From Nemertoderma westbladi (lineage: Eukaryota; Animalia; Xenacoelomorpha): a stretch of 54,286 nt of DNA. How positions within the stretch are numbered: the first letter of the stretch is position 1; every line of letters begins with the position of its first letter. The DNA is taken from NCBI GenBank assembly GCA_032718475.1, contig JAUCBJ010008445.1, positions 1 to 54,286 on the forward strand. The letters are read 5' to 3'. The notes under the pieces were generated by a model, which did not search any database, was not told where the DNA came from, and was given only the letters and a program-made list of their open reading frames with translations. A program made the translations under genes and the position numbers. This document shows, in pieces, positions 3,375 through 45,143 of the stretch.

Positions 3375-4023
3375 TATAAGCGGATTCAATTCCCTGCACT
3401 ACCCAGCGGAAACTGGGCGAAGTGGCATTTTACCAATTATACTTGGGAAGTTGACATTACCAATAATAATGTCAATATCACCTAATAACCAATTTAGGCG
3501 ATACACATCGCCAGCCACAAAGAAAGTTGAGAGGTCATAAACCATCTCAGAGGGACAAAGGGGCTAGCAGGGCTAGCACATGGGGATAGTGGCAACAGGT
3601 AGTGGCGTGATGGTAATTAATCGGATTAGCCAATGATGGGAGTGGAAACTGGTTATTGGAACGCATCTACTGGCCATGCCACTCAATACAGTAGCTGTGA
3701 TTAATATGTGTTAGTAATATTTTGTATTATATTGTGTTATAATATATATTGTGGATTATGATACAGTTGGTAATCTGTAGAGTTGTGAGACCGGAACAGT
3801 TTTTAACTGTCGTCATTACCGTGCTATTATATTCTGACTGTGCTATTATTATGTTCTGTGATTATAACAACTAAGACTAAAACTGAGTTATTCCAACGGC
3901 CTCCGGCCTATTATATTATATTCAGACACCACAGCCTTTCAGCAGCCTACGGACGCAGCGACGCGTATAACACAAACACACCGGTCAGGGTCCAAACTGC
4001 CAACTCCGTTGGATCCCGTCACA
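3375..4023 (+). repeat. 5' LTR of element A
   Basis: Runs t(a)taagcggattcaattccc...ggatcccgtcaca and matches 37023-37689. Confidence 0.9.
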
Positions 4024-4089
4024 GTTAAAAACTGCCAACAAGTCAACAGCCATTTAAATAAACTGTGACCACAGCCAGCGCCAACGAGA

Positions 4090-7000: not shown

Positions 7001-9558
7001 TGGTGAAATTGATCAAAATAATCTAAATAATAACGTAATATATATACAGGGTGAGGCTAGTGGCGATATAATTAATACAAACGTTGGGGAAGCAGGTAAT
7101 TCGCCCAGCCCCACAGATGTCGACGGGAAATGCGCTCAGTGATTCAAGTGAACCGGGGCTCCCGATGATGAAGGAAAGGGGGGGGAGGGCAGCAGAAGCC
7201 CCATGAGTGTCGGCAGATAATGCGCGTGGTGAGTTAAGTGAACCGTGGCACCCAGCGACAGAGGATAATAGGAGGGCAACGAATATCTGCGCGGCCGTAC
7301 AACTGGGCAGAGGGAGGGACGTTGGTGCCGTAAGCAGCCAAACGAGAAAATGTCGAGACAACTCGGAAGATGGAAGAAGGACAGTAGAGTTCATCCGGGA
7401 GGTCGATACGAGACCTCATGAAGGAGGACATAATGCTGAAACCAGAAGAAGTGAGGTGGAACGAGGTTGTGTTGCTACGGGCAATCAGAGACATCGAGAG
7501 AGGATGGACAGTGAACCGTCGATAGTCGAACTAGAGAGAGAGAGCCGGTAGGGTTGTACTCCGGGAGATTGCCGTCGCCCCGAAGGAACACAACCTGGCG
7601 AAATATACCATACACCAGGAGAGGGGTACAGAGTGTACCGATACGAGGAGGAAAACGGAGGAGGGGATCGGAGGGAAACTTCCCATCGGAACGTAGCTGC
7701 AGATTGAGGATATGGTAGTTGCGGGAAGGAGTTCTCGGAATATTCGAGAAGATTAAACGTCAATCCGGAGGGACACAGGCAGACTACAGAATATACTGTA
7801 GGCCTTACTGCGCATACTATAGGCCATGCTGGGAGAGATAGTTTGGCGATAGGGTAGCGCGAATGCCGGGATTGCACCCGGAGGTCGCGGCATACATACT
7901 GGTTAGTAGGCAGGAACCTGATAGGCCTATACCGATACCTGCACTCCAGTATGACTATAATATGCAGGGATACAATATATACTCAGGGGAGGGGGGGGGG
8001 GTATTGCAGATAGGTGTATGGGCCCCAATATAATGACATCAACCCCAGTACCAAATATAACATCGGTGGGGGGGGGGGGGGGGACAGGGTGACATTCCCC
8101 CATTACAGTATCCGCAATACGCACCTGCATGGAGCCTGCATCCCTACCGTCGAGCACGCTGGAAGTACAAGCGATGGGAACGGTAACACTCATCGACAAG
8201 CCACCAAGGTATTGAAGGAGGATTCACGACCGCATGGAGAGCCCTTGACATGGAATTTGGCCATCCTGCGAAGATTATCTGACAAACCTTAAGGGGAATA
8301 ACTTCAGGCGGACTCGCAGATAACCCCGTTAGCATCAATAATTTCGCTAACAATGTAGAGAAAGCGCTAATAGCGTTAAAGACTCTAGATGCACATTACG
8401 AACTTAATGCATCGAACAACATCACCACGATAGCACAGGCACTACCGATCTGGCTGAGGAACAAATGGAGAAAGATCGCTTTCTCCACTCGAGAAAGGAA
8501 AGGTGCAGAGCCAGGGTTGGAGGAGATGTCGAACTTCCTGAACTACAAAGGCGGAGCTAATAACAGATCCACTCTATAGTGAGGACAGTCTAGGCAAGGC
8601 AACAAAAACGGAATACAGCCAACCTAAACCCGAAAATAGTGCGGCGAATGCACTTCCGAAGGTGAGGCAGTCGCTACCGTATGCAGCCACACAGGGGACT
8701 TCACGTCCACAGGGAGTAGAGCCACACCGTGGTAGGGACAGATACCAAGTAACAACATGAACAAATACAAACCCAATACCCCCAGTAGGCCGAGTCCAAG
8801 TAACCAAAACACTAAACCGCTAGATATGAATCTAAGTGCAATACGTGAAGTGCTATATGAGGAATGCTACAATCCCGATTACAAATGTCAATTGCATAGA
8901 AACGGGACCCATAAGACCATGGACTGCAAGCATTGGCAGGCGTTACTTAAACAAGATTGGATAGCCTACACTGGTAAGAATGGACTATGTCATCGATGCA
9001 TGGTAGGAGGACACAGGAAGGATGAGTGCCAGGAACCGCCGATAAAATATGCCGAGACTGATGGGACTGGAGGCCAGGCGATGGTGACAAGCACCATGGG
9101 AGCAAAGAGGAGGGGAACAGTATTACTCGGAGTAGTACCAGTGAGGATAATAAGGGTGAACGAGCTATCGGTTACAACGCTAATGCTGCTCAATAGCGGA
9201 GCAGCGTTCACGCTAGCGGAAAGTTGGGTGGCCGAAAAGATAGGGTTATAGACAAGGTCAAGTAAGATGGCGGTAACCACAATTTCCAGCAAGGATGAGG
9301 TCATGAAAATGAGGACGGGATGATGCAAAATAGCAGCGATAACACCAGTGTGCAACTATGGGGCTACCATCAAACCCATTCAGATAATAGAGTCAATCAA
9401 CATTAACGCCAGGCAACCTACAAAGATCAAAAACGAGCAATACCGGTACCTGGACAATATTGACTTCTCCATGCCCGAAATGGACGTCCCGAAACTCATA
9501 GTCGGCATGGACTGTCTGACGGCCCACGAGAGACTACAGACCGTCTTTGGCGAGGATA
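4090..9558 (+). pseudogene. gag: Element A gag-protease region, fragmented
   Basis: Coiled-coil and Asn-rich fragments. Zn knuckles CQLH..H..C and CHRC..GH..C, plus a degenerate protease motif LLNSGA, in ORF 8757-9251. Many stops and frameshifts; start approximate. Confidence 0.7.
5262..7655 (+). repeat. Imperfect ~1.3-kb tandem duplication inside A gag
   Basis: gccaattagaact..gaggctggtt..gaaacctttgttaata..cacttacaggtaccg occurs at ~5267 and ~6568. gtcggcagataatgcgcgtggtgagtta and actccgggagattgccgtcgccc occur in both copies. Confidence 0.8.
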
Positions 9559-10279
9559 CTACTACTACTACTAGTATCGGCATGCTCCATTGCAGCTGCA
9601 TTTTTAAGAATGCTGTGCCGGCTTGTCGACAAAATTGCGCCAACACAACTCGCAATCACCAATGACATTTGCTAGATCATCCGCATCTTCAAGGCCAGTG
9701 TCCTTTAAGATGCATCTCAAGAAAGTCATGGGCTGTCCACCATGCTTTTTCACTCCATGAGGCTGCCAAAGTACAAGATTATGCACTGGCTGGTCCTCAC
9801 GGCGAAAGCAATGTCCTGCAAAGCGGAGGCGATTTTGTTCTAGTGTCAAGCTTGGGGGAACCAATGAGACACCTCCAATGTTATATAGTGTCTGGTTGGA
9901 GATGTGTGCATTGTACTTGACACAATGAACCCGGCGTAGCATTCTCGTGAATGTGCCATCCAGAGATTTGGTGTCCTCAGCAGTTAGAGCCCAGCGTGGA
10001 CTCCCATAGAGGAGTACTGGAACTACTGCTGCTCTAAATAATTGGACCTTAAGTTTCCGATTAATTCTCGGTGACTTCCAAATCCTGGAAAGCATTCAAG
10101 GCTGCCCATGCCTTTCCCTTACGTATTCGAAGGTCCTCACCTGACTTCCGGATCCATGATCCCAGGTAACAGAAATCGTCCACTTGCTCAAGCATACCAT
10201 CCTTTGAGCTTATGCTCATCTGATCAGAGACTTGCTGAGAACTTTCAAAGTTAACTGTCAAAATTTTGTTCTTTCTGGA
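9559..10279 (-). mobile_element. 5'-truncated RTE-like LINE copy with (TAG)n tail and 57-bp TSD
   Basis: Nearly identical (reverse complement) to 40590-40710 and 45473-45990. The tail reads (cta)n on the + strand from 9559. The flanks 9502-9558 and 10280-10336 are identical. Confidence 0.9.
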
Positions 10280-10336: not shown

Positions 10337-11708
10337 GGGAGCGAGATCCAGTGGCCATTCTCACGCCATGCTGGCCCAATTGACAAGAGTCCCGTTCAGC
10401 GTGTCCGAATCCTCAGGGTGCATGTTCGCTGGAACAATGAGGGAAATGGAGGACGAGGGAGCAGATGAGCAACTCAAGAGGCTGCTACGGCAGGATTTCG
10501 AGGGGCTGAAGGAGGCCGGGGTGGGAACCTCAGTGGAGGACAAGCAGGCGCAGGAGAGCGTCAGGAACTCGATGAAATGCCAGGGGGGACAATATACCAT
10601 AGGGATGGTATGGAAGCAGCCGAAGGTGCCCCTACCAGACAAAAAAAGGATGGTCTTGGCGAGGCTTCGAAAATTAAAGCAAACACTTGGACGGAGCCCT
10701 GAAAAGAACGAGTACATCCACAAAACCATCAAGAAGTATGTGGATCGAGGATGGGCCCTGGAACTACCGGTGGATGAACCAAATTCCGAGTAGGACCTAC
10801 TATTTGCCACTTCATGTGGCTCTGGATCCTTTAGAAGGACAAGTTAAGAATGGTGGTCGATGCATCTGCCAAGGCAAATGGCAAGAGTCTAAATGACTAC
10901 CTACTGGAAGGCCCCAATATCTATAAGTCGGGGATAGAGGTCCTATTAAGGTTTAGAAGTGGAAAACATGCCTTCACGTGCGATATTGAGGGCATGTTTA
11001 ACCAAGTGCGAGTGACGGAGGAGGATAGCGATAGTCATCGCTTCCTGTGGTACAACAGCGACGAAGGACCGTTGGAGATACCGATGTACAAGATGGTAGT
11101 ATATGGGGGCCAAGTCGTCCCCATTTACCATGACTTCAGCCATAAGAGACACGGTGGAGGGCAAAGAGGGGGAGTACAGTGAGGAGGCAATTGATATGAT
11201 TTGACGCGGGTTCTATGTGGATGATGGGATGGGTTCTGGAAACTCGGTTAAAGAGATACTTGATACAGGGCGCAAACTTCGCGACTTCCTGAAGGGATCA
11301 GGATTTAACCTTACAAAATTCCAGTCCAACTCTAGAGAATTTATGGAAGCCATAGAAGATAAACAACCGGAGGTAAAGATAGATAAACCTATAACAATAA
11401 AGGAGCAGATTATGGCGGACAAGAGAATAGAATCGCAGGAGAAGTCACTAGGGATCGTATGGAACCGGGAGACAGATGAGTTGGAATATCAACTAAATCA
11501 GGAGGGTGCCGGGATCCATACTAAACGAAGCTATGTGTCATACATATCGAAGATTTACGATCCGCTAGGCCTAGCGTCCCCATTGTTAGTCACGGGGAAA
11601 CAAATATTGAAGAAGGTCTACAAGATAAAAGATGACTGGGACGCGGAGGTCCCAGTGGAGATAAGGAAACAGTGGGAGAAATGGACAGGGAGCCTCAAGG
11701 AAATGGGG
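10337..11708 (+). pseudogene. pol: Element A pol, RT region (first part)
   Basis: YYLPLH, VVDASAK..SLNDYLLEGPN, FTCDIEGMFNQV, FYVDD, SKIYDPLGLASP. Stops and frameshifts. Cut at KEMG by element B. Confidence 0.9.
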
Positions 11709-11729
11709 TGAAAGATCTCCCACGCCAAA

Positions 11730-12759
11730 TAGATCGCAAATTATTCGTGGATGTGAGGTAATCGCCCAGTACACGCAACCTCGCCACTTCAACTGTGACT
11801 CGAACTCATTTACGCCAGGGGTATCTCCCTCACCGTATACATCCGTGTATTTGCTCCTCTTGCTCTCCTTATAATCCCAACTAAACATTTGGTATGAGAT
11901 ATAACCTGTTCCAGGTAATCCTGAAATATCCTTGCTCAATAGCCCAAAGCAACAATGGTCTAGTATCCACGTATGGTGTAAGCAATCAATCCTCCTCCGT
12001 GGGCATTCCTGCGAAATCGCTAATAAGGTCATCCCGTACACCGGATCCGATCTTGACGATACTTTTATCAAGTACAACGTCTCGTACGGCCTTTGGCAAC
12101 ATCCTAGCTTCGATGCTACAAGCCAGGTCCATGGATTTAACTATCTGTTTTATCATCGCGTGTCTTTGCGTCATTCCTTCCGGCATAGGCATCTTTCTGT
12201 CGCTCCTCTGTCGGCTGAAGACATGTAACACGCCATCTGGTGCTCGAATCTGCATGGTCTTTGAAGTGAGGCTTTGCTGATGACTTCCTCCTTCATTATC
12301 GTAAAACATATAACCATTCTCCTTTAGAGATCGGCTAGTTGCGTCCCAATCGTCGAGTAAATCGTCGGTAGGGTTCCAAATTCTCCCTATTGACTTTTCA
12401 TCATCGAAACTAATAGGTTTTCTGGTCCAATTGGTCGCAATATCGGTGTCGGTCTCAAACGTGCCGACTCCAATCCATAATCGAATCGTTTTTGTCAGAT
12501 ATCCTCGCAAGATGCAAGGTGCGATATCTGGCCCCGCGCGATCCACTTCCTTAAAGTCCGTAATATGTGGAGGCACGTTGCGTACGATTTTCTGTACTAT
12601 CGTTCTACGCAACTCGGCTGACTCTAACACATAACCAAAGGTAACCGATGGGAGGAAATCCAGGTTCGAAATGATCTCCGGGTGTTCTACGATAGGGTAT
12701 CTCATAAGTTGTCTCCTCTCGGGTCGGTATACTAATAGGAAAGCTGGTTGGTCTCGCAA
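11730..12759 (-). pseudogene. Element B accessory ORF, C-terminal part: DEDDy-type 3'-5' exonuclease domain (stop and frameshift)
   Basis: ExoI-like MFYDNE, then MQIRAPDGVLHVF, and ExoII-like LPKAVRDVVLDKSIVKIGSGVRDD. After the stop at 11986 the frame reads YVDTRPL. No ExoIII motif recognised. Confidence 0.7.
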
Positions 12760-13708
12760 CTGGTACTATTGCTTTAGTAGGATGGGGCTGAGGTTCTCGC
12801 GTCATCTCGACATGAGGTATCTGTAGTCTCTGCAACAAACGCTGAGCAAAGGTGATACTATCGACGAGCTCGGGTGTCATCTCCTTAGGTTCGGTTTGAT
12901 CGTGGGATATCCAGTAAAATGGTAGGCTCGCGAGCCTTCCGCCGAACTCCTCGATCTCACCTTTCTCGTACACCTTGTACGCCCTGTAGAGGCTCAAAGC
13001 TTCCCGTTTCTCTTGTGTCGACTTGTTAGACTCATCCACTACCATATTGTAGACGTCTGGTTCGACTAATTTGGGTTCGTAAATAACGATCTCACCCGCA
13101 TTCGGTCCACTCATCTTGAACGAATGGTACGGATTCGTCAAAGGGTATCCGCCTTCTTGGTAACGCAGACTTTGGTGGTATGAGCATTGTGCTAATATTG
13201 GCTCGGGGTTCTCCGAGTTTAATCGCATAGGAATCGCGTTGTCTTGCTCGCGCATACATGCTCCACATTTGTAAAACAGTTTATATATGGAGAACGCGTC
13301 CTTTGTCCCTTTGGCTCCTCGAGCGCGTCTATAAAGATGCATTCCTTCAAATTCGTCCCTGGCTGCAGGCAAGGGTTCGTTCGCCGTCAAATATTGCAGC
13401 ATATGATATAATCGGCGTATCTCCGTGTCTGGATCCTCGCAAATGTCACTGGCGTCGCATAACGCATCGTAGGGATACAACGCATTAAACTCCGCGCATA
13501 ATTCCTCCGCTCTTTTGTTATAAGCGTCCAATCTCTGTCGCGTAACATTCGGGTCCGCCTTGGATTTAGCAAGCTTGGCTGTACTCCTAGCCATACTCTC
13601 CACTCCAAACACGCTAAAGTTTTTAGCTCCATAATGATTAAACAGCGCCTGGTGCTCCTGTTCCTGCGTAAACCCCTGACGTAACTCCTTATAAATCTTC
13701 TCCGCCAT
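12605..13708 (-). CDS. Element B accessory ORF, N-terminal part (367 aa, unknown domain + CxxC..CxxH)
   Basis: ATG-started ORF downstream of pol on the same strand. Homologous to C ORF 29551-30627. Probably joined to 11986-12759 across a frameshift. Confidence 0.7.
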   Translation of the reverse strand: MAEKIYKELRQGFTQEQEHQALFNHYGAKNFSVFGVESMARSTAKLAKSKADPNVTRQRLDAYNKRAEELCAEFNALYPYDALCDASDICEDPDTEIRRLYHMLQYLTANEPLPAARDEFEGMHLYRRARGAKGTKDAFSIYKLFYKCGACMREQDNAIPMRLNSENPEPILAQCSYHQSLRYQEGGYPLTNPYHSFKMSGPNAGEIVIYEPKLVEPDVYNMVVDESNKSTQEKREALSLYRAYKVYEKGEIEEFGGRLASLPFYWISHDQTEPKEMTPELVDSITFAQRLLQRLQIPHVEMTREPQPHPTKAIVPVARPTSFPISIPTREETTYEIPYRRTPGDHFEPGFPPIGYLWLCVRVSRVA

Positions 13709-14447
13709 TATATACGCGTATATATGGTTACATATCGTTACGTTTCTACTAGATGAAGCACAAAATAAAGGTTAGATGTGAGGAGACTTAGAGTTTGTCG
13801 GCTTTTGGCTCAACTTTGCTCTAAAACTCCTACCCATTTGCCTAATGACTTCGGGTTCGCGTGATTTCGCACTGGCTCCTAATCCAAAAAAATGTGCCGA
13901 TAAAAAACGAATTCCGGGTAAACTAGCCGCGAGTCTAAAATACTCACCTTTTAATTTCCCAAACTACATTCCCAAAGAAAGTAGTGCAGTCGAGAATTAA
14001 TTTGGTCTAAATAATAGTAGACACGACTACATAGAACAAGGCCGATTTTCTTTTCCAAAAAAAATTTATCGGTAGGCTCGCAAGCCTTCCATCCGCTCTT
14101 GTCCTCCCCAATTTTAATTTTTATCTAGTTGTATTCTAGAATTCGCATTCACTGGAGAATCATTTTTCTTAAATTTAAATCCAACTAAATGGATTTGTCT
14201 AATAATTTTTGAAAAATTGTCTCACTTGTGGGTTCCAAGTAGAATTCCATTCCTACTGTACACACCATCCCGCTCCTATGTGATACATAAGGGTACTACC
14301 CTCCATGTTCACATATAAAGACAATGGAATTCCACCGCTGTCTCTATCTACAGTGAAGAGGATTACAAATGCACATACAGTAATACAAAATACTAAATTA
14401 CTAAAATACGGTAAGTCTATGTGGTGGCCATCAAGGGTTCCACATCT

Positions 14448-17400
14448 CTATTTACTAAGGTTGGGTGGAGATTTGTAATCTCCTGTCTCGTTTCTAGTCT
14501 CCTCAAGGAGCACGAGACGTTGTACAGGCCTATCTACGGTACGTCCGTCGATAGTCCGTACAGTAACTGTCCTTACTACACCAGATGTAGGGTGTGTGGT
14601 CAAAATGACTCCAGTCAGCCAAAACCGTCTTTTCAGATTGGCTTCAGCCAATAAAACATGGTCACTGCGTCTCAAACATCGGGTATTAAGATACCAAGAG
14701 GTTCTGGTCGAAATAGAGGGCAAATAATGCTTCTGCCATATTTCCCAGAATTTGTTGGCTATCAGCTGAGTGATTTTCCAAGCTTTGTTGCCGTATCCGT
14801 CGCTATCGACAGGTACCGAAGTGGGCAACAATGTCGTCGGTGCCTGCATAAGCAGGTGCGCTGGTGTCAAGGCAAACTGTGCATCGTTATTGTCTGGGAT
14901 CAAAGCAATCGGTCTAGTGTTCAAAACCGCTAACTCGATTTCTATTAACAACGTCGTCAGTTGGTCGTCTGTTAATATGTGTTGCGTCGGTATTACTTTT
15001 GCCATAGCCGTCTTGATTGAGCCAATCAGCCTTTCCCAAACGCCGCCTCTCCACGGACTGTCAGGAGTGTTAAAGTTCCAAACAATACGGTGAGGACGTA
15101 GTTCCTCGGAAATCTGGTCTTGGTCCAACTTCCTTAAAGCTCTGGTTATTTCATTCCGTGCACCCACAAAGTTAGTCCCTTGGTCGCAATAAATGGATTT
15201 GACCAATCCACGTCTAGCGATAAATCACCGTAAGGCTAGGATAAAGGCGTTGGTGGTCAAGTCTGTCACACGCTCAATATGGACAGCTCTGCTGGCCATG
15301 CAAGTGAAGATTAATCCCCAATGTTTTACCTGTACCCTTCCGCGTTTCGCGATTATGGGTCCAAAACAGTCTATCCCTGTCTCAGTGAAAGGGGGTCTAA
15401 AAGCCTGTAATCTTGTTAGTGGTAGTTCACTCATTTCTTGGTGTCCTATCCTCGCGTGCACCTTCTTACAAATTATACAGTTCCGTGTTACCGAACTCAG
15501 TGCCTTGCTAGGCCTAATCAGTACAAACCTCGATCGTAAGTGTGATAGGCAGTGATGTCTACCCACGTGTTTGAGTCGTACATGTGCGTCCAGTATCATA
15601 GCGCGCTGTAATTCATGGTGTTGCAGTATGATGATAGGATATCTAAAGTCAAGTGCAAAGTCAATGTTCTGGAGTCTGGACTTGTGACAAAGTAAGCCCC
15701 TGTAAATAATCGGACTCCAACTCAAAATCGGTGAAGACTTGATCTGTTTACCCTGATTGATCGCTGTGAACTCTCGTGCGAAATATTGCAATTGATAATG
15801 TCGAATAATATCAACTTCACAATGACCAACTTCCTCTAAGGTAAGTCTTGTAGGAAAGTCGCGTTTGCCTCTGGCATATTGTCTCAAACGTTTGAGCCAT
15901 GCTAACTTGCAGCATGCGTCAGTCCATGATCTAGTTAGGTTTACTATCCTGTCAACGTAAGTGTTAGTGACGTCATCAGGTGAGGTATAGTCGTAATGTG
16001 GATACTTGTTTGGACTTGGTAGGCCCGCGGGCCTTCCAGTAGGTGTCTCCCTTTGTACAATAGGTTTGTCTGAGTCCTCAAGTATGTCAATCTCCATGGT
16101 CTTACCTCTACCGTCCGCACCTAGAGAATTGACTGGCAGTAACGGTTTCAACTCTACAGTCCTAGTGTGTTCCTGTGAGCTTGTAAGCTTCCTAACCTTA
16201 GTCACACGTTTACCTGTAGGTGGTAAGTCAAGTATTTTCTTTGAGCGGAGTGTGATCGCTGTGGCCACACCTTCGTTGTCCAAAGAAGTCAAATTCGGTA
16301 AGTTGTTAATACCTAATGGGTGTGTACTAGTCCGCTCCAATGAATTCATTGCGTCCTTACAGTACACATCGTTTCTTTCCAATTGTTTATCTAATGGAAA
16401 GTCTAGTAGACAGTCTGGTGAGGCATCCGGTGAACAGTCTGGTGAGACGTCTAGTGAGACATAGCGCGGAAATTCCGGCGAAATGTCCTGTCGTCGGTCC
16501 CAAAGAAAGTCTGGCATAGCTTCTGTCAGAAAGTCTGGTCTAAAGTCTGGTGGACAGTCTGTCGAGATGTCTGGTGGAAAGTCTGGTGAAACGTCCGGTA
16601 GACAATCCGTCGAGAGTTCCATAAAACAATCTGGCGAACAATCCGGAGAATAATCTGGTGTCGCTTCTGGTGAATAATCTGGCGAGTCATCTGGTGAACA
16701 ATCCGGCGAAACGTCTGGTGAAATCTCCCGCGGAACATCCGGTGAAAGATTCATATGAGCATCTGGTCGAGATTCTGGTGAGACGTCTGGCGTAATGTCA
16801 GGTCTAGCGTCCAGGTCGTCAGATTTCGTCCATCCTTGTTTCCTCTTGACCTTGGCGTTGGCTTTCGCTTTAGATTTGACAACTGTGTCAATTTTTATCT
16901 CGGCACCCTCCGGTATGGTATTGGTTGTATCGAATAACGGTGGCCACAACGGTGGTTTACAAAAGTTGATTGGTAGCATCCCCCGTGATGCGATGTCAGC
17001 TGGGTTCAGCTTCCCTGGACAGTGACGCCAATCTTGTTTGAGCGACCGGTCCAATATTTCAGCCCGTCTGTTGGCTACGAAAGTCTTGAACTCAAATGCT
17101 TCGTTGTTTATGTACCAAAGTACCAACGTCGCATCCGTCCAATATGTGACCTTCAAGTTAGCCTCCAGCTCGCGTTGAACTAGACTGACAATATCGGTGG
17201 ATATCGTCCCGGCTTGCAGCTCTCCACGAGGTACAGTCATATACTTCAACGGCATTGTTCTAGCCCTAGAAGTAACGAGAGACACATCGTAGCTGTCCGA
17301 TGTCACTTGTCGTCTAAGGTATAAGGTAACCCCCAATCCATCCTTGCTAGCGTCACTAAAGCTGTGAAGCTCTAAATCGGCAGGAAAGGTGGTCTGCAAA

Positions 17401-19314
17401 GGAAAGTATACCCTTGGTATGGTATAGTCTTGTAGGAACGTCAGTTAGGCTTCCCAGTCCCTCCATTGCTCAGCTAACTTTTCTGGGATGGGATCGTCCC
17501 ATTCCAGTCCGGATTGCCAAATGCTGCGGAGTATGATCCTAGCATGTAGGATCACTGGACTAATGAAACACAATGGGTCATACAATCGACTCATGGTCGA
17601 TAAGCAAGTCCTCTTAGTGAGAGGTCTAGTCTGGTCATTGGACCTTACACGTACCCTAAATTTGTCGGTGTTAGGGTCCCAACTAAGTCATAATACTTTG
17701 GTCGTAGGTAGAGGTTCTAGGTCTAAGTCTAAATCTCCTCCACTGCGATCAGTCGGGTCGAATGAGTTCACTAGTTCGGGTTCATTGGAAGCGAACTTCT
17801 TAAGGCGGAATCCGCCCTCAGCGAGACAATCCTGGAGTTGGTGTGCTACGGTTGTAGCGCGCTCCAGAGTGTCACAACTCTTGAGGCCGTCATCCACGTA
17901 GAAATCTCGTTCCACTGTCCGAGCTACTTCTGGGTAAAATTGGTCTTGTCTGTCTAGTGCTGTTTGCTTTAAGGCGTACATGGTGCAGTTGGGGCTGTCC
18001 CTGGCTCCGAAAACTCTTACCTGCATTTGGTAAGTTTCTGGCGGAAGTTCTAAATATCCGTCCAGATACCAAAGAAACCTCAAGCTGTCCCTGTCCCGCT
18101 CCAAAGCCTTAACCTGGTGAAACATGGCCTCTACGTCACAGGTGAAAGCCACTTTGCGTTGTCTAAAACGCATTAGGACTCCCATGAGGTAATTATTCAT
18201 ATTCGGCCCGTCCATCAGTTCGCTGTTCATAGACATCCCTTGGTAAAGCGCAGCGCAGTCGTTGACTACACGCACATTTCCAGGTTTGTCCGGGTGTCGA
18301 ACAAAATGATGTGGCAGGTAATATGTCTGATCTGTGGTTACCTCGGGATTTAACATCCTAATGGCGTATCCGTTTTGGAGATACGTCTGAAGTTGCGCAT
18401 TGTATTGCATATGGGCCATTTCATCAAGCAACAATCGCTGCCTTATTGATTTGAGTCGCCTCAAAGCAAGCGGGTAGTTGTTAACGAGATTAGGTTGTCC
18501 ATTGCGCTACAACATGCCAACCTTGTAGTGGCCATTCGCGGTCTGGCGAATGGTATCCCTCATAATATTTAATGACCGTTTTTCCTGTTCTGACATAGCG
18601 GTCTCGTAACTACCGGGTTCTGCTGAGTCCTGTTCTAACCATTGAATGGTCCGTTCAGTCAGCAGTTGGTCAAGCGCTGCTTGCACTGCGCCATGGTCCT
18701 CGTCCACGTCTTCGTCCGCTGTGGTGGCTAGTGTCAATGTGTCTGGTAGGCTCACAAGCCTTCTGGTGTCACTAGTCAGCGTCGAATCGTCTTGTGGCGG
18801 TTTGACAACCTTCTGATCTGTCGGTAGGCTTGCAAGCCTTCCTAGATCAACCACCGGTGTCGAAGCCTGGTGGGTGGGGTCAATGACCTTCGGATTTTTC
18901 GGTAGGCTCGCAAGCCTTCCAAAACCCTCGTTCCCCAGCAACAACACTTTGGTCTTCAGTAGTCAATACAACCTGGTTTACTGCAAGTAGTTGTAAGTCA
19001 GAGGTCCGTGTGGTCGTGTCCAGATCAGTTACGTCAGTATCAGTTACGTCTGCATTTGCGACGCAAGTCTGTCGTAGTGCAGTCTGTACAATTGGACCAT
19101 AGGAGTGTGAAGGAGAATTATCTATCGTAGTAGTCAATAAACTACACGTACTCAAAACGTCGTCCTCCTGGTCACTTACCTCTAGTGAACGCACTGGTGC
19201 TCTAGTATACCAACCTATGGGAGTTCTACATGCGTAGGGGTTGCCCGCTGTAATAACAGATGGGCGTGTCTCCCATACCTGATGTAAGTTAAACTGGTCT
19301 GTCCCAATTAACAT
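14448..19314 (-). pseudogene. pol: Element B pol (end of PR region, RT, RNase H, integrase) with a few stops and frameshifts
   Basis: YYLPHHFV, RDFYVDDG, ELHSFSDAS, WRHCPGKLNPADIASRG, HHCC zinc domain, TGIDCFGP, CDQGTNF, GGVWERLIG. Confidence 0.92.
16400..16810 (-). repeat. In-frame 12-bp (xSPD-like) tandem repeat in the RNase H-integrase linker of B
   Basis: Translates as PDVSPDCSPDDSPDYSPEATPDYSPDCSPD... within ORF 15225-17399. Confidence 0.85.
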
Positions 19315-19563
19315 CGCGATTGAGCGATAATTAACAATTCCAATAACGATCCTAAATTTACAAACTATGAATAGTAAATTACAGATAAATTCTGCCTAAA
19401 AGTAATTTAAGTAAAAGTAAAAGTAATGTTCAGAAGTTTACAGTATATTTACAGTTTTACAAAGATTTATCAAACAGATCTAAAGAGTTATAACAAATAA
19501 AGTTCTAAGCAAGAGAAATGGTAACTAGAAACAAGTTCTAGGATAACAAGAGTAAGTGAAGTA

Positions 19564-20771
19564 TGTAAAGGCTTTTGCGGATCTAACTAGTTATTTTCCC
19601 CGCAAAGTACTCTGTAGGTGTTTTAACGGACATAAAAAGCCATTTCCTTACTGTACCGGTGTTTTAGTGGACATAAAAGCCATTTCTTCTATATGTGTAC
19701 TTTAGCGGACATAACTAACTGTGTACTTTAGCGGACATAACTAGCGATCGTATGTCGCAATAGCCAAAATCCTCTTGACACAGTGTAGTTACTATGACGA
19801 CGGCTAACAGCTGATCTGTACACGTGGAGCTTTTCCTTTGTTCTCTGTCGTTTCTTTGTTCGGTCGACCAATCAGAGCGTTTTTTGACTCTGTGTTGGAG
19901 GTTGTATACAGTAACTCATGAATTGAGTCAGTATGTGCATTTTGTCCTGAGCCCAGAAGACCGGCTTTGGAATCTCTGTGTTTTCAGTCTTTAGCCCAAC
20001 ATTAGTAGGCTTAATTATAGAACGTATATCTGTTATCTTACTTACAAACCAATTCATACCATACCAAACCACATAACCATTCATACCTTAACATTTGTAC
20101 TGCTATTTACTGTCGGTTATTCATTATATCAGTTGATGGAATATTATTATATTTGGAATACCGATAAATAATTACAAAACCCTCAATCTTCTTGATATAC
20201 TGAAGGTAAGAGAGACCGGTTACATATAACGATTGCGACTTACATTAAAGTGGTTTTGAAGTGAATCTAATGCTATTTCATAGGCACTACATGTATCGGT
20301 CATTGTTCTCTTTATATGTGACTAAAATTAGTGAAGGTCGGCAGATCGGTGTGCAGCATTGTGCAGTAGTGTGTATGGTATGATTGTGACTGATAACAAA
20401 GCATCTCCTAAAGAATGCGCCATATATGTGAATCCATAGCCATCCCGTTGTGTCTAGTTTAAGTCATAATTCTGTTTACATATTTAGAGCGCCACGTCCT
20501 AAAGGAACTGTTAATATTTCCTGAAAGTGAATAATATTTGTCAGAGATTATATATTACGATCAGTCGAATAATACAGTAGGCCTACACCGCAATAAGGTT
20601 AGGCTTCTGAATCCAGTCTCCCGGGTATATCCAGCGGGTGAATGGTCGCGCATAGACTGGCTTCGGCTAATGTAGTGTATCAAATACTCGTCATAGGCTA
20701 AAGTCGATTTATTATCTAGAAGACATCCAAATTTGGCAGGTTAAACTGCTAAAGGTCTAAAAGCGCGAACA
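19564..20771 (+). repeat. 5' LTR of element C
   Basis: Direct repeat of 31153-32355 with only scattered substitutions and one 5-bp indel. Confidence 0.95.
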
Positions 20772-21050
20772 ATAACAGATATAGCTTCTGTATTGCGGTA
20801 GGCAATAAAGCTGAAGTACCGGTCAACCGGTACCTAGTAGGCCTGACTACCTAACCACCCGGACCGGTACCTACAGCAGTACAGGTACAGCAGTATTATT
20901 CGATTTTGATAATTATATACCGGTAGGCCTTAATAATTAATCAGGGACTGCAGCCCTGTTTTTTTATTGAAATTTTACTTATTTCTGTCAGTTTTATTTA
21001 CTTGTAGGTTAATATTGAGCAGAAGACGTGTAAGCCTGCCCAGATTGTAC

Positions 21051-21630
21051 AGATAATTTGTAGGCTGGACTGTTGTCTGACTGTTGTTAAGTCTGAAGGG
21101 ACTGTAGTGTGTGTAGAGCGTATGTCCGAAAAAGTACTAGTTAGGAAAGTAGGGGCTTCCAGTGCTGTGAGGTAAACCCCCTCGAAAGAATAAGTCGTAC
21201 TACTCGGTTAGAACGCATACTAACTAACCATTTCGGAGTCTGCATATACTGTAGTTTATTTAGGCTTGATAGTAGTCTGCCAGCGTTTGGTTTGTACTTT
21301 GTTTGTGTAGTCTGTACTGGTAGCGTAATATTTCTTATTTAGATAATTTGTAGGCTGGATTTTGTCTGGCTGTTGTTAGGTCTGAAGAGATTTCGGTGTG
21401 TGTAGAGTGTATGTCCGATAAAGTGCCAGTTGGGAACATAGGGGCTTCCAGTGCTGTGAGGTAAACCCCCTCGAAAGAATAAGTCGTACTACTCGGTTAG
21501 AACGCATACTAACTAACCATTTCGGAGTCTGCATATACCGTAGTTTGTTTAGGCTTGATAGTAGTCTGTCAGCATTTGGTCTGCATTTTGTTTGAGTAGT
21601 CTGTACACGTAGCGTAATATTTATTATTCA
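21051..21630 (+). repeat. 290-bp tandem duplication in the 5' leader of C
   Basis: agataatttgtaggctgga... begins at 21051 and again at 21341, with a long identical core. Confidence 0.9.
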
Positions 21631-22952
21631 GAGTTTATGCGATTATTCGCAACATTCATATCCCCAAGTTTATTCCTACAGTAATTGTGCTTGTTATACA
21701 TACCGTTATAGTTAAATTAACCCCGGTACTACATCAGGGCTGCTTGGCGTAGGTAAAGACTGGTGATTTTGTGCCCCGGTCACTCCAGCAGATACCGTGG
21801 TTCTTTTAGCCGTTCAAGTATTTTAACTACTGATTATTTGTTGTATAAGTACTTGTACCTAATTTAGGGTTTAGTGTACAGTGCTTTCCGAAGGTAATTA
21901 GTGTAGGCAGTATATTTGTGTTGTAAAGTGGTTAATAGGCACGTTGGTTCTGGTAGACCGCGGTAATTAACTTCTAGGTAGGAACACTCCGTGATACATA
22001 ACGTAGTACTTATAGCGATACGGCTATAAGTCGTCAGACGGTGGTATTTTTCTTATCTGGACAACGCAGTATATTTACTACTGCTTTATTATTTTCAAAT
22101 ACCGTAGTACTCTGTCCGTTGTAATAACCAGATAATCTAACCCTTTGTTAGGCTGGTTTGTAGACTTCTTGTAAAATTACCCTAAAAATTCGTACGTGTA
22201 ATTTTGTGTTTATTTAGAGATTGTAATCTCACCCCGAATTGTATGTAATTTGTAGTATTAAGTAACTTAGGTAAATTAGAATTATTTGTTTTAGTGTCCA
22301 ACAAGTAGCACTTCACTGAGAGCGTACAGCTTCTGTGTAGTGACTCTTTCCCAGAAATAATAACATTTATTTCAAATATTGACAAAACCCATTAAAACGG
22401 GTATATATATTATAAATCAACTCAAACCGATTTATAAAATAGTAGGCCTGTCATACAACAATTAGGTCTCAATATCAGTTGGACTACTGCTTAAATAACG
22501 GTAATAAAGTAAGTTAAAGTAACCAAGTAACCCCTAAAATTCAGAAATTCAATTATTCTAAAATAATTGTATACCGGTATTCACGATAGGCCTACTATAT
22601 ATTTATAAATTTAGGCTGAAATTATACCGGTATTCTGTAATTAATTCTAGTTCATAATTATACTTATATATACTATAAGTATAAGCTGTATACCGGTATT
22701 CACGATAGGCCTATTATATATTTATATATACTTGTGCTGAAATTACATACCGGTATTCTGTGACAAATCTAGTCTGTGATAATACTTATATATATATACT
22801 ATAACCATACCGGTATTCTAATATATTATATATATATTACGCTACACTGAGTAGCAGTATCGGTAATTAATTACTAGGCTAACAGTGATACTGAATTACT
22901 AGACTTGCTTAAACTGTAATATAGCAGTAGGCATTCAACTGTACAAACAAAC

Positions 22953-23822
22953 ATGTCTGACACAAAGCAAAACCTGTCAGACAGTCTCCTAGATACAACC
23001 ATCTGTGACCCAGACAGGAGTGTGGAACGTGTGAGACCGAAGTTCAATTCACCTCCTACTGTAAGAAAGATCATCCCTCTGGTAGTAATATCAGACCCTA
23101 GGCTAGTCCAACACCGTAGGTCTATCATAGGCACTCAAGCTCAGGTCAAGCGGGACCAAGAAGCAGCGGAACAGCAACAACCCGCGAGCCGAGAACTTAT
23201 TTCTCAGCGGCCCGACAGCTCCAGTAGTGCGGATACTGTAGAGCTGACACCCGAGTGTGGAGCAAAGATGGCAGATGCGGTTTATTCGGATCCCCTTCTC
23301 ATCCTTCCTGCAGCCGTACTCACTAGAGTATTGATTGCGGTGGAGGAACACCAGATTGATTGGGCGAGAAGTAAGCGATCGACCAAGGATAGTTATGCGG
23401 GATACACAAGGGAAGAACTGAAGTCTATTGTCGAGTCGCAATGGAACTTCCCCGGACCCGGACTCCCGTTTGACTTATCGGAGGCTGCCTGGGAAGACAT
23501 ACACAGGATGGGAGTGACAAAGGAAACCAGCGATCCAGCTGTGTGGAAGAGGTCCGCAGCAGGATACGTACAGGGATTCTTCAGCTCTATGGAGCGATTA
23601 GAGGAACAGCTGTTTAGACAACCCCAAGGACCTCAAGAGCAGGGAGAGCTGCTTTATCAAGTTAGAGAAAGAATTCTAAGAATCAGACTAATCTTATCAG
23701 CCTTTGAGGAGGCTTCGAAAAGAAGACAAGACACGTCGTTGCAAGTTGCCGTAAAGACTTGGCCGTCAGCGAGTGAGTCTCAAAGTTCAAGGAACTGCCC
23801 AGTGGAAATCTCAGCTGGCTGA
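22953..23822 (+). CDS. Element C upstream ORF (289 aa), probably the Gag N-terminus offset by a +1 frameshift
   Basis: ATG-started ORF overlapping the long gag ORF by 50 nt. No recognisable domain. Confidence 0.55.
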   Translation: MSDTKQNLSDSLLDTTICDPDRSVERVRPKFNSPPTVRKIIPLVVISDPRLVQHRRSIIGTQAQVKRDQEAAEQQQPASRELISQRPDSSSSADTVELTPECGAKMADAVYSDPLLILPAAVLTRVLIAVEEHQIDWARSKRSTKDSYAGYTREELKSIVESQWNFPGPGLPFDLSEAAWEDIHRMGVTKETSDPAVWKRSAAGYVQGFFSSMERLEEQLFRQPQGPQEQGELLYQVRERILRIRLILSAFEEASKRRQDTSLQVAVKTWPSASESQSSRNCPVEISAG

Positions 23823-26800
23823 GCGCTCAACTCATGGAGAATCAACAGACGCTACCTTTTCCCAAGTGGAAAGCGAAGCGACAGCAGAGAAACCGCATAA
23901 GAGGTATGCTATTGACATCTATCTGTCAGACTATCAACGCTTTGTAGGTGATGAAGAGTTGAGGAGAAGGCTAGATGGACTTAGCCCTAATAGTGAAGGA
24001 GCCAAGCTTGTGTTGGACGCAATCGATGCGGATATGAGTGCTGCGAACCAAGCTAAATTTGATGAACGCCTCCGCATCACTAGGGTCCAAGAAGAACAAG
24101 TAAAGAAAAAACGTATAGAAGACAGAAAGACAGTGGCAGTGGCAGCAGCAGTGGCAGCAGCAGAAGCGGAAAGAAAAGTGGCAGCAGCAGTGGCAGCAGC
24201 AGAAGCGGAAAGAAAAGTGGCAGCGGCAGCGGCAGAAGCGGAAAGAAAAGCGGCAGCAGCCGAAGCGGAAAGAAAGGCGGCAGTGGCAGCGGCAGAGGCA
24301 GTGGCAGAAGCAGAACGGAGAGCGTCTGAAGAAACCACCCAACTAGAATTGGAAAACATTCAGGAGAATCAAGACTGCATAAATAAACAGTTAACAGCTA
24401 GTCAAATGCAGATGATGAGTCGATCAACTCCCAAAAGAAAGGGATATACATCATCTGAGGAAGGCGATACCACCGATCCTGAAGGCGGAGGAAATAGATC
24501 TCGTCTAAGCAGACGTAGAAGAATGTCCCACCGTCAGAAATTGCCTGATTTGCCCCCAGCTGTTAGAAGGCAACTAACTAACACAAACTTAGGTAGTACA
24601 GAACCCACAGACCAAATAATTAACATAGAAAGACTCCCTACTATAGTAGATGAGCCTGAAATAATTAGGCCTGTTCTCGAAGCCACCCCTTCGGTGATAG
24701 AGACTCCTGTACTCCCAGAACCTACCTCTAAATTCCCTTTGCATAGCACTAAACTACCTGTGCCCAGCAGAACAGCCCATGAGACAGTTCCTGTTCTGGA
24801 CTCCGAGCGAAATATCAATGATTTGTCGCCCGTTGTCCCCCGTCCACCCGCTACTACGTTGGCGACTCCCGCTTCGGCGGTCGAGTGGGTGGATGAGAGA
24901 CGGCGGGGGATGGATCTCCTGCTCGGGCAGATGCAGGAGACTGTTAAGCAGTTCAAGGGCACAGTAAGGGAAAGTAGGTTAGAGTTGCAAGAAGTGCAGC
25001 AAAGTATCGCGTTAGAACGCGATAAATTAGTAAATACACAAAGGGGTATACCACCACCCCCGGTAACAATGTGTCAACCTGTTAGGTCTGAAGTATTTCA
25101 TGCGCAAGGTGTGGAGCCTACACGCATCTATACTGCTAGCGAAGTGGAAACTCCTATAGTAAACCCTATTAAGGGTAATTATAAACCTGTTGACAATGAT
25201 ATTCCATATAGACTTGATAATAATCCGAGAAATTTATATACCGATAACTCGATATTAAATAACACGATGGCCCAAGAAAGTTTTACGCGTCAAATGGCTA
25301 GAACCGAAGCCCGTCAAGCGGTAAAGGTGGGAGAGATCGTCAAGTTCAATGGAGATGAGATGAAATGGTTACCTTTTAATGAATATTACAAAGATAACAT
25401 ACAGAACTCTGTGCTATCTAACGGAGAGAAACTTAGATTCCTCATCGAGTGCTTGGAAGGATCTCCCAAGTTAATGGCGTTAAAGTTTATTGGACATCCC
25501 GATGGATTAAGACAAGTTTGGGATACCCTAAACATCAGGTATGGTAATAGGAATAACATAGCTAGGTATTTGTATGCAAAATTGGTAGCGCCCCGAAAGA
25601 TCATTAGCAGCGGGATAATAGAGTTTTCCGATGAGATTCAAGAGATCTGTAGACAATTAGATTGGCTAGGTAGGTCTCATGAATATCAGAGTTCTATGGT
25701 TATTGGAGCTGTGGCCTCTACTTTACCGAAGGGTGGAGTAGGTACACGCTGGGATAAGAAAGTGTTATATATGATGGAACAGCAACGACGAGACCCTACC
25801 ATGGCTGATCTCATGTCATTCTTAGATGGAGAAGTGAAATTACAGCTCCTAAAGCAGTCCAGAGAGAAGACACCGGAAAACAAGGTAAGTGAGAAACCCG
25901 TTTCTAGGAGAAAGGTAATACCAGTGTGTTATACAGACGACGGCGAAAGCCAGGCTTCTCAAGAGGAAGACAGCGGGAAAGACACTGAAAGATCTTACTA
26001 TGACAACAAAGCGCCTAAGGACGTAAGTAAATTCAAGTCTCGAACCAATGACAGGAGAGAACAGGTAAGAAAAACTCCTCCTACGTCTCCTAAGAGAATT
26101 CATGTAAGAAAGCCCGAAGAAAGAACGAGTGTGCACAACGTTACTCAAAGTAAGGTAAGTAACATCAAACCAAAATGTGTGCTGTGCGACAGGCCCCACC
26201 GTTTAAGTGCGTGTGATGAATTCCTGAGGAAATCACTAAAGGACAGACGTGAAGTCATGTGGGATAAGCGGTTGTGTTATAATTGCCTCAGACGAGGACA
26301 CCAACGGCGAACCTGTTACTCCGACGCAAGGTGTGCAAAGTGCGGCGCAAAACATCATATCTTGTTGCACACTGAATTCGATCGAAACAGCCCGAGTCAG
26401 GTAAGTGAGTCCGAACTACATGTCCAATTCAGTGATGTGAACGACACTGACCAAAGTTCTGAGATGGAAGGATTCTATACGGACGAATTCTCCGATGAAA
26501 ACGAATCCTGTTACCTGATAAATACCGCAGTGTATCGAGCACTTACGTATGAAGAGGACACCGACAGCGAGCTCCCCCTAACTACTTCTGACCGACAACC
26601 ATCTTGGAAAGCACCAACTTCCAATGTAGGAATCCGAGAATTTCCTGTAGTACAGTTGAGGGTCCACGGACCTAAAAGGAGTTATATAGTGAACGCCCTC
26701 CTTGACTCCGGTAGCACAGGAACATTCATCGACAAAGAACTAGCCGAAGACATCTTTGCTGGACAACCCAAGTTCCGAACTAAGTTAAACATGTCAGGAA

Positions 26801-27915
26801 TTATGCAGGTTTGGAAATCTACAGTAATAACGGATTATTATGTAGGTGCGTTGTCCACCCCCCAGGATGAACTAGGAGAACACAGCATAAGGTCAGTAAA
26901 AATGGTGGCGATAAAGAACTTCGCTACCAGCCAAGTAGAACCTTATAACTGGGATGAGGACGATTCCACCCAGCAGCTTAATATACCTAGATTCAACACA
27001 GACTACCCTGGAGTGCAAATACTCATCGGCCAAAATGCGCATGAGGCGCTTGAGACATTGGAGAAACGGCCTGCTCAACCGCAACCACTACAAGCCTATG
27101 CGGGAAGAACTAGAGTAGGTTGGTACCTTACTGGCCCTTCCCGTAGAACTCTCATAGAAAGGTTACCAAAAGAACGGGTATACCAAGTAAGTGAATGGGA
27201 AGCGGAGAGCAGTGAAGTAGACGACCCAACTGAGGGAACACTATACTCCTCAGATAATGACGATATTAACTCCAATGTAGATCAATGGAGACATTGCCCC
27301 GAGACGATTAATCTAGCCGACATCGCTTCCAGAGGAGCAACTCCTCAAGAACTGACAGATACTCCAGACTGGTTAGGTGGACCCGACTTCCTAAGTAAAG
27401 AAGATGAATGGCCTCCCCATCTTACCACGGCTGAGATTAGACAAGCCAAGGGAGCGGAGAAAGTCAAACCTAAAACCCAGACGAGTAAATCAAGGTTATT
27501 TAAACCCGTGATAGATCTGTCTGTACTACACATTGCCAGAGACGATGCTGTGGATCTAAACTCCCCCACCGCGAACCGATCTGTTGTGGAGATCAGAGAG
27601 AGAGACTGGAGATCTGGAACACCAGACGTCTCGCCGGGACTCTCACCTCTCCTGCCGGGAGCGATGGACCACTATAGATCCTGGAATCGGCTTTGTAGGG
27701 CCGTCGTGTATTTGAAGCGATGTTTCTATCGTCACTATTCCAGGACGAAGAGGAAACCTGGAATTGTCTTCGAGACACAGCAGCTCAATCGCCCAGTTGG
27801 TCGTTTATATTTACTGGAACGAGACCGAGAACTGTCCGGAAACTATGGAAGGCAAGATACTCTTCCCACGACCACCTCCCTAATCCAACAAACATCTAGG
27901 GACTCCCCAACGTAA
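23773..27915 (+). CDS. gag: Element C Gag-protease polyprotein fused in frame to RNase H-end and integrase-tail remnants
   Basis: KFNGDEMKWLPF (DUF1759-like), BEL triple Zn knuckle CVLC..H..C / CYNC..GH..C / CAKC..HH..LH, protease ALLDSGS, then WRHCPETINLADIASRG and RPVGRLYLLE. Confidence 0.88.
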   Translation: MSLKVQGTAQWKSQLAERSTHGESTDATFSQVESEATAEKPHKRYAIDIYLSDYQRFVGDEELRRRLDGLSPNSEGAKLVLDAIDADMSAANQAKFDERLRITRVQEEQVKKKRIEDRKTVAVAAAVAAAEAERKVAAAVAAAEAERKVAAAAAEAERKAAAAEAERKAAVAAAEAVAEAERRASEETTQLELENIQENQDCINKQLTASQMQMMSRSTPKRKGYTSSEEGDTTDPEGGGNRSRLSRRRRMSHRQKLPDLPPAVRRQLTNTNLGSTEPTDQIINIERLPTIVDEPEIIRPVLEATPSVIETPVLPEPTSKFPLHSTKLPVPSRTAHETVPVLDSERNINDLSPVVPRPPATTLATPASAVEWVDERRRGMDLLLGQMQETVKQFKGTVRESRLELQEVQQSIALERDKLVNTQRGIPPPPVTMCQPVRSEVFHAQGVEPTRIYTASEVETPIVNPIKGNYKPVDNDIPYRLDNNPRNLYTDNSILNNTMAQESFTRQMARTEARQAVKVGEIVKFNGDEMKWLPFNEYYKDNIQNSVLSNGEKLRFLIECLEGSPKLMALKFIGHPDGLRQVWDTLNIRYGNRNNIARYLYAKLVAPRKIISSGIIEFSDEIQEICRQLDWLGRSHEYQSSMVIGAVASTLPKGGVGTRWDKKVLYMMEQQRRDPTMADLMSFLDGEVKLQLLKQSREKTPENKVSEKPVSRRKVIPVCYTDDGESQASQEEDSGKDTERSYYDNKAPKDVSKFKSRTNDRREQVRKTPPTSPKRIHVRKPEERTSVHNVTQSKVSNIKPKCVLCDRPHRLSACDEFLRKSLKDRREVMWDKRLCYNCLRRGHQRRTCYSDARCAKCGAKHHILLHTEFDRNSPSQVSESELHVQFSDVNDTDQSSEMEGFYTDEFSDENESCYLINTAVYRALTYEEDTDSELPLTTSDRQPSWKAPTSNVGIREFPVVQLRVHGPKRSYIVNALLDSGSTGTFIDKELAEDIFAGQPKFRTKLNMSGIMQVWKSTVITDYYVGALSTPQDELGEHSIRSVKMVAIKNFATSQVEPYNWDEDDSTQQLNIPRFNTDYPGVQILIGQNAHEALETLEKRPAQPQPLQAYAGRTRVGWYLTGPSRRTLIERLPKERVYQVSEWEAESSEVDDPTEGTLYSSDNDDINSNVDQWRHCPETINLADIASRGATPQELTDTPDWLGGPDFLSKEDEWPPHLTTAEIRQAKGAEKVKPKTQTSKSRLFKPVIDLSVLHIARDDAVDLNSPTANRSVVEIRERDWRSGTPDVSPGLSPLLPGAMDHYRSWNRLCRAVVYLKRCFYRHYSRTKRKPGIVFETQQLNRPVGRLYLLERDRELSGNYGRQDTLPTTTSLIQQTSRDSPT

Positions 27916-29550
27916 CAGCGTCTGGAGTGGGTGTGTGACTATATTATTTTATATTTGTTTTTATTATTTTATATTTATGTATGTATTATTATGTAATTTT
28001 ATTATAATCGTTTTCTTTAATTTTATTTAGTAGAATGTTATTTTAGCGATTATTTAGTAGATTAGTGCAATATATATTAGTGTTTATTACTTAATTACTT
28101 ATATATTATATATTTAGTGCGACGGCGAGAAATAATTCTTTTTCTCTTTCCTTACTGTCCGTATTACATTACAAATACGTAACTACAGTAAGATGAAATG
28201 TCCGTACTTATTAAAGTACAATAAAGCTCCTACTATATTCAAGTATTATTGGTAAGTAGAGTATTAGGAATGCAAAATTCAGATCCTCGTGTCTCGGCTA
28301 AACCAAGCTCTGGGTAGACCTTGGAAACGACTTGCCTCTTCTCACTGACATTGCTTCGTGCGATATTGCTCTCATACCGTATCTCAAATAGTACATATAG
28401 TAGCGTGATGTCCCTTTAACAGTAGCGTACAACGCAAAAATAAATCTGTTAAACCCTTTGACCATCTGTAATTCTAGTCGATTAAGATATCGCGGCACCC
28501 ACCGATATACTTGAAAGACAAAATTCTAGAATCAGTGGTTAACGTCCCCAGACATGTTCTGGAATAAACTGGTGCCCATCCTTAAATATTAATTATTAAT
28601 ATTTACAAAATCTGTCAAATTTTAGATCCTTTAAAATTCTAGTCTATTAAGATATCGTAGCACTTACCGATATTCTTAAAAGGACCAATTTCCTAGAATC
28701 AAGGATCCTAGTCCCCAGACATGTTCTGGAATAAAATTGTGTCTATTTCATATTAAATAATAAAATTTACGGGAATAAATTTAAATTCATGTTTTAATGA
28801 ATTTGATAAATTGTCATCTTTATACAATTCATAACATTCCCAAAATTCCATTAATTAATAGATCATGGGAGCGGAGATTCACTCTATTAAGTGTATTAGT
28901 GTGCGAGAATCTCCAATATAGTCAATAGCCGATAAAATTCATAAAATCATGTATAAAGAGGAATATTGACAATTAAAGAATTACTATTAAATAGCATCCC
29001 AGATCTGTATGCTTGGGAATTACCCTAATTCTACCGCTAGCTTTCCATAATGTCACCATGGCAACAACCACGCTAGAATTAGAAGTGAGTTAAAAGAACA
29101 ATAAAGCTTGCCCATTGAATAGCATAAGGAATAAATAGCACACTGCTAGTATCCCAGGATACCCAATAATAACGTGGCATTCTGGAAGGCACTGACTAAC
29201 GGACAAATGGCCCGAATGTGAGCGATTTGTGACAGTTGTGTGGAATTTGTGCGTTTATAGGTGAATGTTACTACTAAAGTGTGTTTGCAGTAGCGAGTCG
29301 CAATTGTGAAAGTAACCCTAACTCTCCAGTAAGAACCTGAAGTAAATCTAAGCCTTTGGGACGGACGGTGGAGTGACTCGCGCTGGTTGTTGTGGTCGTT
29401 GTGCAGCTACGACGTTGGCGATAGGCACATCGGCGAAAGTACACCAGCGCTGAGGATCTTGCGCTGTCCGGGGGCCGAGAGGGGTAGGCAGCGACGCCCG
29501 CTAGCCCAAATATAAACTCATTATAATATTGATAAACTCATATAGCAGAT

Positions 29551-32355: not shown

Positions 32356-32360
32356 AAGTA

Positions 32361-40710: not shown

Positions 40711-40769
40711 CTACTGTGGGATCTCCAACACTACCAATTTGTTTCCTACGTATTTGATAATTTGGGCCC

Positions 40770-45077: not shown

Positions 45078-45143
45078 CATCTGAGTAAGAACGAATTTTA
45101 GCTCGGGACCGCCTCAGACGGCTAACCCGAGCTCGGAAGGGGG

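Follow-up and report, generated by a model that had tools for sequence, protein, structure and literature searches.

Exonuclease genes carried by retroelements

The closest described systems to the locus reported here come from bdelloid rotifers, in which the LTR retrotransposons Juno and Vesta, as well as the Athena/Terminon elements, carry a third open reading frame (ORF3) for a DEDDy exonuclease, as described in PMC5408684 and PMC6431247. The occurrence of such ORFs in bdelloid retroelements, which a sequence-only reading of our locus had mentioned, is indeed described in PMC5408684. According to PMC5408684, the rotifer ORF3s show no departure from neutrality, a role in silencing is doubted, a DEED variant is present in the ORFs and their function was untested. 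By comparison, the ICTV profile of Belpaoviridae holds only gag, pol and env-like genes together with a tRNA primer site (PMC8742986). We found no literature report of a DEDDy exonuclease in a BEL/Pao element, and the main texts of PMC3118150, PMC8220671 and PMC12440569 do not contain the word ‘exonuclease’, although supplements, Repbase and GyDB could hold such an annotation.

We analysed a stretch of 54,286 nucleotides of Nemertoderma westbladi DNA (the window), in which a BEL/Pao element called X carries an ORF3 of this general description. Judged against the published descriptions of the rotifer ORF3s, it shares a sense orientation behind pol, the lack of a membrane segment, DEDDy-like motifs and a family-specific presence, and some of the rotifer ORFs likewise carry a Cys/His motif. 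In this comparison by description, the rotifer hosts are Ty3/gypsy-type and Penelope-like elements whereas the host here is BEL/Pao, and ORF3 of element X is set apart by its length (>650 codons), by roughly 470 front residues of no known kind and by a third-position bias among its differences from other copies. If the exonuclease reading given below is true, a second reverse-transcribing family joins the rotifer Gypsy-type and Penelope-like elements as a carrier of exonuclease cargo. Unlike the rotifer case, the present one comes with a sign of purifying selection and a high-copy family. Its many natural copies offer material for two questions: which functions LTR elements derive from third genes other than envelope genes, and whether retrotransposons of animals have counter-silencing or primer-processing enzymes of their own.

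A BEL/Pao element within a nest of retroelements

Retroelements are nested within one another in the window, and three BEL/Pao elements among them, called A, X and B′, are relevant here. Element A, on the plus strand, is bounded by LTRs at about 3375–4022 and 37023–37689 that are 95% identical. Its RNase H region is the insertion site of element X, as supported by the frame continuity of element A. The insertion carrying element X (11709–32801, minus strand) is 21 kb long, has TG...CA ends and is flanked by a 5-bp target duplication, TGGGG, at 11704–11708 and 32802–32806. Because the two ends of this insertion share no sequence, both LTRs of element X must survive only as remnants. Two deletions have affected this copy, from which gag, the primer site and a full LTR are all missing. 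Along the minus strand, what is left comprises an LTR remnant, pol, a 740-nt spacer, ORF3 and a terminal remnant of 31 nt (11709–11739), which likely represents the last bases of the 3′ LTR.

The pol gene of element X (14448–19395, minus strand) encodes the end of protease, reverse transcriptase (RT), the RNase H region, integrase and DUF5641, and is interrupted by several stops. Pfam profiles detect Peptidase_A17 (E = 4e-17) and DUF5641 (E = 1e-18), and the scores for Integrase_H2C2 and RVT_1 fall under their cut-offs. By these pol signatures and by the PR–RT–RH–IN order along the strand, element X is a BEL/Pao element (Belpaoviridae), as had been proposed from the sequence alone. The likeness to the Belpaoviridae profile, which lies in this domain order and in the Pao and DUF5641 signatures, extends to the TG...CA ends, the 5-bp duplication and the position of a third gene in the place of env. 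In contrast to the profile, the third gene of element X is not env-like, and its neighbours A and B′ are without a tRNA-type primer site.

Element B′ (19564–32356) is an insertion within the LTR remnant of X. It is young, with LTRs that are 98.75% identical (1189/1204) and a duplication of AAGTA, and it has an open gag–protease frame of 1386 codons in which RT and RNase H are skipped without loss of frame; there is no integrase. B′ thereby resembles a maintained non-autonomous family, and complementary genes are present in the surrounding element X. An older LTR piece at 529–1216 has 73% similarity to the LTRs of B′.

ORF3 is a family-wide gene damaged in the window copy

ORF3 of element X starts at an ATG at 13708 (minus strand), 740 nt past the integrase stop at 14448 and in the sense orientation, and runs for about 656 codons down to 11740. 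Three breaks interrupt it, namely frame changes near 12698 and near 11914–11920 and, between them, a TGA at 11988–11986. This structure bears out the sequence-only description of a sense ORF of more than 600 codons after the integrase that is broken by frameshifts and a stop. The gene end given there as 11730 is corrected to a cut-off at 11740, where contig cover stops.

The breaks divide the gene, on the minus strand, into three parts. The N-terminal part (12699–13708) consists of 336 codons without a stop, belongs to no known family and has no membrane segment; a C-x2-C-x23-C-x2-H motif within it (13175–13267) likely binds zinc. The middle part (11920–12697), which contains the TGA, begins with about 120 residues of no known family and continues into an exonuclease-like domain. 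The last part in the window copy (11740–11913) retains 57 codons before the cut-off. Maximal 19-residue hydropathy is 0.52, 0.92 and −0.17 in the three parts present, the gene end being lost from this copy. An env-like fusion glycoprotein was considered and rejected for ORF3, given the maximum of 0.92 and the lack of a membrane anchor in the parts present.

We examined other copies of the gene in contigs from four public DNA runs of one organism, produced by three studies, with each run at no more than 0.30 of the sampled words. Absence of the ORF from other copies had been set beforehand as a refuting result; instead, contigs of all four runs cover 11748–13800 in every bin. The integrase end, the spacer and the ORF3 start are bridged by overlapping contigs, with no single contig across the whole. 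At the TGA, all contig depth deviates from the window copy in 4/4 runs, and at each of the two frame changes the contig sequence differs from it in length. Since other copies differ at all three breaks, these are private to the window copy. ORF3 is a family-wide gene that is damaged in the window copy, and the BEL/Pao family of element X is high-copy.

Contig cover stops at 11740 with loose ends in 3/3 runs, indicating that the gene continues in other copies. The truncation itself is real, because one contig crosses the junction (11690–11782) as the window has it, with 1 difference; assembly error as the cause of the 11740 junction was rejected on the same grounds.

Differences between the window copy and other copies were also sorted by codon position. 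Among the 40 listed of the 80 differences in 11690–12420, 32 fall at third codon positions (binomial p = 2e-9, which is not a dN/dS value), comprising 21/27 above the last frame change and 11/13 below it. The adjoining region 12421–12697 has 6 of its 9 listed differences at third positions. The N-terminal part has a third-position change at just 2 of its 10 listed sites (the listing gives 40 of 575 differences); this sample is small and biased toward changes private to the window copy, and still speaks against uniform constraint. Taken as a whole, ORF3 is a real, family-wide and selected third gene.

These observations bear on the idea that ORF3 is a captured fragment of a host gene, carried as neutral cargo. 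The broken state of the window copy would suit that idea, as would the lack of third-position bias in the 10 listed sites of the N-terminal part. It nevertheless appears very improbable, given the bias in the last half of the gene and the private nature of the breaks, along with related ORFs in two other families and the failure to find a close host protein.

A probable exonuclease domain in ORF3

The sequence-only reading had placed a DEDDy 3′–5′ exonuclease gene in the env position. The accessory gene holds up as a non-envelope, family-wide ORF3; for the enzyme identity, a motif model is favourable (ranks 1–2 of 870) and database profiles are not. All of the motifs quoted in that reading (YDNE, LP.. 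and YVDT) were located in ORF3, on the minus strand. YDNE (12303–12292) is an ExoI-like D-x-E. LPKAV (12099–12085) falls in a helix plus ExoII-like stretch at 12028–12099, which also includes the ExoII-like GSGVRDD (12048–12028, within KIGSGVRDD) and yields the strongest single match to WRN/EXD2-type profiles. YVDT lies at 11973–11962. The arrangement resembles that of the WRN-exo/EXD2/Mut-7 group (PF01612) in its order of D-x-E, two strands, a helix followed by K-x-G-x-G-x-x-x-D, and a later D. Compared with this group, ORF3 lies under any database threshold, has about 30 extra residues inside the exonuclease-like domain after the third strand, and shows no match in the window copy to ExoIII or to the W motif that precedes it.

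Element A carries a second exonuclease-like ORF, a remnant at 36145–36597 (plus strand) behind its integrase, with GDVE at 36190. This ORF ends early, and ExoIII is found in none of its frames. It and ORF3 of element X are similar to each other to an extent reached by 1 of 3000 shuffles, and the elements themselves are distant, with 33% identity (42/129) at the integrase end and 51% over an RT piece. Furthermore, ORF3 of element B′ (29536–30627, plus strand) shares a helix and the C-x2-C...C-x2-H motif with the N-terminal part of ORF3 of element X (BLASTP E = 3e-8), and no exonuclease part is seen in it. Three arrangements thus coexist in the window: element X combines the zinc motif with the exonuclease, B′ has just the zinc motif, and A has just the exonuclease. 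Some of this difference among the elements may be decay.

Unbiased searches with ORF3 were blank. The proposed check against PF01612 gave no match, nor did other Pfam profiles; PHROG and NCBIfam gave no meaningful match, a sequence search of the PDB no match, and RNase D-type profiles (60 sequences) nothing. No relative of either ORF3 part emerged from a word-indexed search of 5.8 billion proteins, which is length-limited and weak, or from metagenome and viral contigs. ORF3 was seen in 0/3 unrelated BEL/Pao integrase loci in such contigs, which are short, so this count carries little weight. The sole HMMER match in 1.84 billion representatives was rejected as an unrelated three-repeat protein without exonuclease motifs, and two tblastn matches in phages were judged to be due to chance. 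Two AlphaFold models of ORF3, made without a deep alignment, have pLDDT values of 33.5 and 34.6, too low to be of use.

Targeted tests used a WRN/EXD2-type set of 120 bacterial proteins, for which the nearest solved structures are WRN, Mut-7 and EXD2, and a pool of 870 six-frame segments. With unfiltered HMMER, the ORF3 segment is at the top of the 870, but at E = 3.3, and the best decoy reaches E = 2.5, so that decoys are its equals. With hhalign (47 of the 120 sequences), ORF3 alone gives P = 0.0019 (probability 14%), ORF3 together with the element A ORF gives P = 0.0017 (15%) and the element A ORF alone gives P = 0.13 (0.5%).

A five-block ordered-motif model that allows long linkers, in which blocks and linker limits were set with the query known, puts the ORF3 segment and the element A ORF in the first two places of 870 whichever profile set is used (16.5 and 24.0 versus 8.0 for the best decoy, and 33.1 and 28.5 versus 19.3). 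These ranks are kept with the first and the wide linker limits, where 0–1 of 1000 shuffles reach the score (wide, 0/1000). With tight, cellular-like linkers, ranks drop to 1–8, below the best decoy, and 4–16 of 1000 shuffles reach the score. On the first three blocks alone, ORF3 ranks 385 and 61, from which it follows that its signal comes mostly from the ExoII block; the element A ORF ranks 3 and 1.

Could ORF3 be a real accessory gene of some other fold, with exonuclease motifs that arose by chance? The blank unbiased searches would fit such a protein, and the model was built with the query known. Even with wide, untuned linkers, however, two distinct post-integrase ORFs lead the ranking, and they do so through complementary blocks. 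We therefore regard chance resemblance as improbable, and the last part of ORF3 probably has a DEDDy-type exonuclease fold. The exonuclease reading as a whole is likely rather than proven, its backing coming from the targeted tests.

Among the individual catalytic motifs, the chain model assigns YDNE to the ExoI block, where the block score is near zero. HMMER, hhalign and the same model agree in aligning the ExoII acidic residue; set beside the rotifer ORF3s as described, the ExoII place holds D in element X and E in element A. In the window copy, which ends at 11740, the suggested check for an ExoIII Y-x-x-x-D motif found none in three frames: the best score is −1.3, whereas members of the group reach at least 36. 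A formal YGEGD at 11837–11823 sits in a Gly/Pro loop.

ORF3 might accordingly encode a DEDD fold that is catalytically dead and binds RNA, as in EXD1, Maelstrom and Egalitarian, for use in RNA transport or as a decoy. Besides the lack of an ExoIII match and the near-zero ExoI block, the roughly 30 extra residues agree with a dead module, as do the E in the ExoII place and the early end of the element A ORF. Against this, both ExoI acids (D and E) and the ExoII D are retained, and none of the 40 listed differences (of 80) touches their codons; moreover, the copy is cut off before the gene end, and ExoIII may lie beyond. A dead module seems unlikely on this evidence, and the predicted catalytic activity of the domain stands at about an even chance.

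A predicted spliced transcript and possible functions

A predicted splice-acceptor-like site at 13749–13775 (minus strand), composed of a CTAAC branch motif, a pyrimidine tract and CTAG, lies 41 nt before the ORF3 ATG. The pattern, which was picked after it had been sighted, occurs just this once on 7.6 kb of the element X strand, and 13 of 5000 spacer shuffles yield such a site within 100 nt of the ATG. One ATG–TAA lies between the site and the ORF3 start. It is reasonably likely that ORF3 would be expressed from a spliced RNA, as env genes are.

Our preferred explanation, which we hold tentatively, is that element X carries a conserved third gene, likely spliced, whose protein would join a zinc-binding front part to a DEDDy-type 3′–5′ exonuclease domain. 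This protein would act on host small RNAs, or on their precursors, by trimming or holding the 3′ ends, and in this manner may weaken silencing of the element. Given the fold, the odds for an anti-silencing role fall just short of even. The role is preferred because BEL/Pao elements can do without the gene, because it forms a separate ORF rather than part of Pol, and because the nearest profiles are those of WRN, Mut-7 and EXD2. Mut-7, Nibbler and EXD1 function in small-RNA pathways. Part of this background is covered by PMC5408684.

The primer sites of the neighbouring elements carry a self-priming signature: in element A, 4023–4034 pairs with 3797–3808, and in element B′, 20772–20783 pairs with about 20025–20036.

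Such sites raise the alternative that the exonuclease serves replication of the element by removing unpaired nucleotides from the 3′ end of a primer RNA that the element makes itself, or by trimming the ends of its cDNA. In both A and B′, the primer site pairs over 12 nt with the element’s own LTR and there is no tRNA-type site (1 and 4 of 5000 shuffles, respectively), and element A combines such a site with an exonuclease-like ORF. 3′-end processing has also been proposed in PMC5408684 and PMC6431247. On the other side, element X no longer has a primer site, and B′ has a self-pairing primer site yet no recognisable exonuclease part, although B′, being without RT, might receive help in trans. 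It is also not evident how the product of a separate, likely spliced ORF would reach the particle. A replicative function is accordingly rated unlikely, well behind the anti-silencing role.

A more ambitious proposal joins these strands in a self-priming BEL/Pao lineage with a long-held, modular and spliced gene, composed of a zinc domain and an active WRN/Mut-7-type exonuclease, that has been swapped between families and would either mature the primer or destroy small RNAs. ORF3 would then be the first nuclease accessory gene of Belpaoviridae. We consider this full combination doubtful.

Other features of the window

Several further features were observed in the window. Within pol of element X, the interval between RNase H and integrase contains an in-frame D/P-rich repeat of SPD/PPD-like units (16400–16750, about 130 residues). 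The LTR remnant of the same element includes a tRNA-like stretch (32590–32665, minus strand) for which ARAGORN makes no call and which is likely a SINE or a tRNA pseudogene. In element A, 83-nt tandem repeats occupy 35199–35716, between the integrase and the exonuclease-like ORF, and 9557–10279 consists of inserted pieces of the same RTE-like LINE as that found at 39259–45947. This LINE itself contains a GC-rich (about 61%) Gypsy-type element at 40761–44684. Finally, an intact LINE ORF of 1142 codons at 50284–53712 encodes a PHD finger, an endonuclease and RT.
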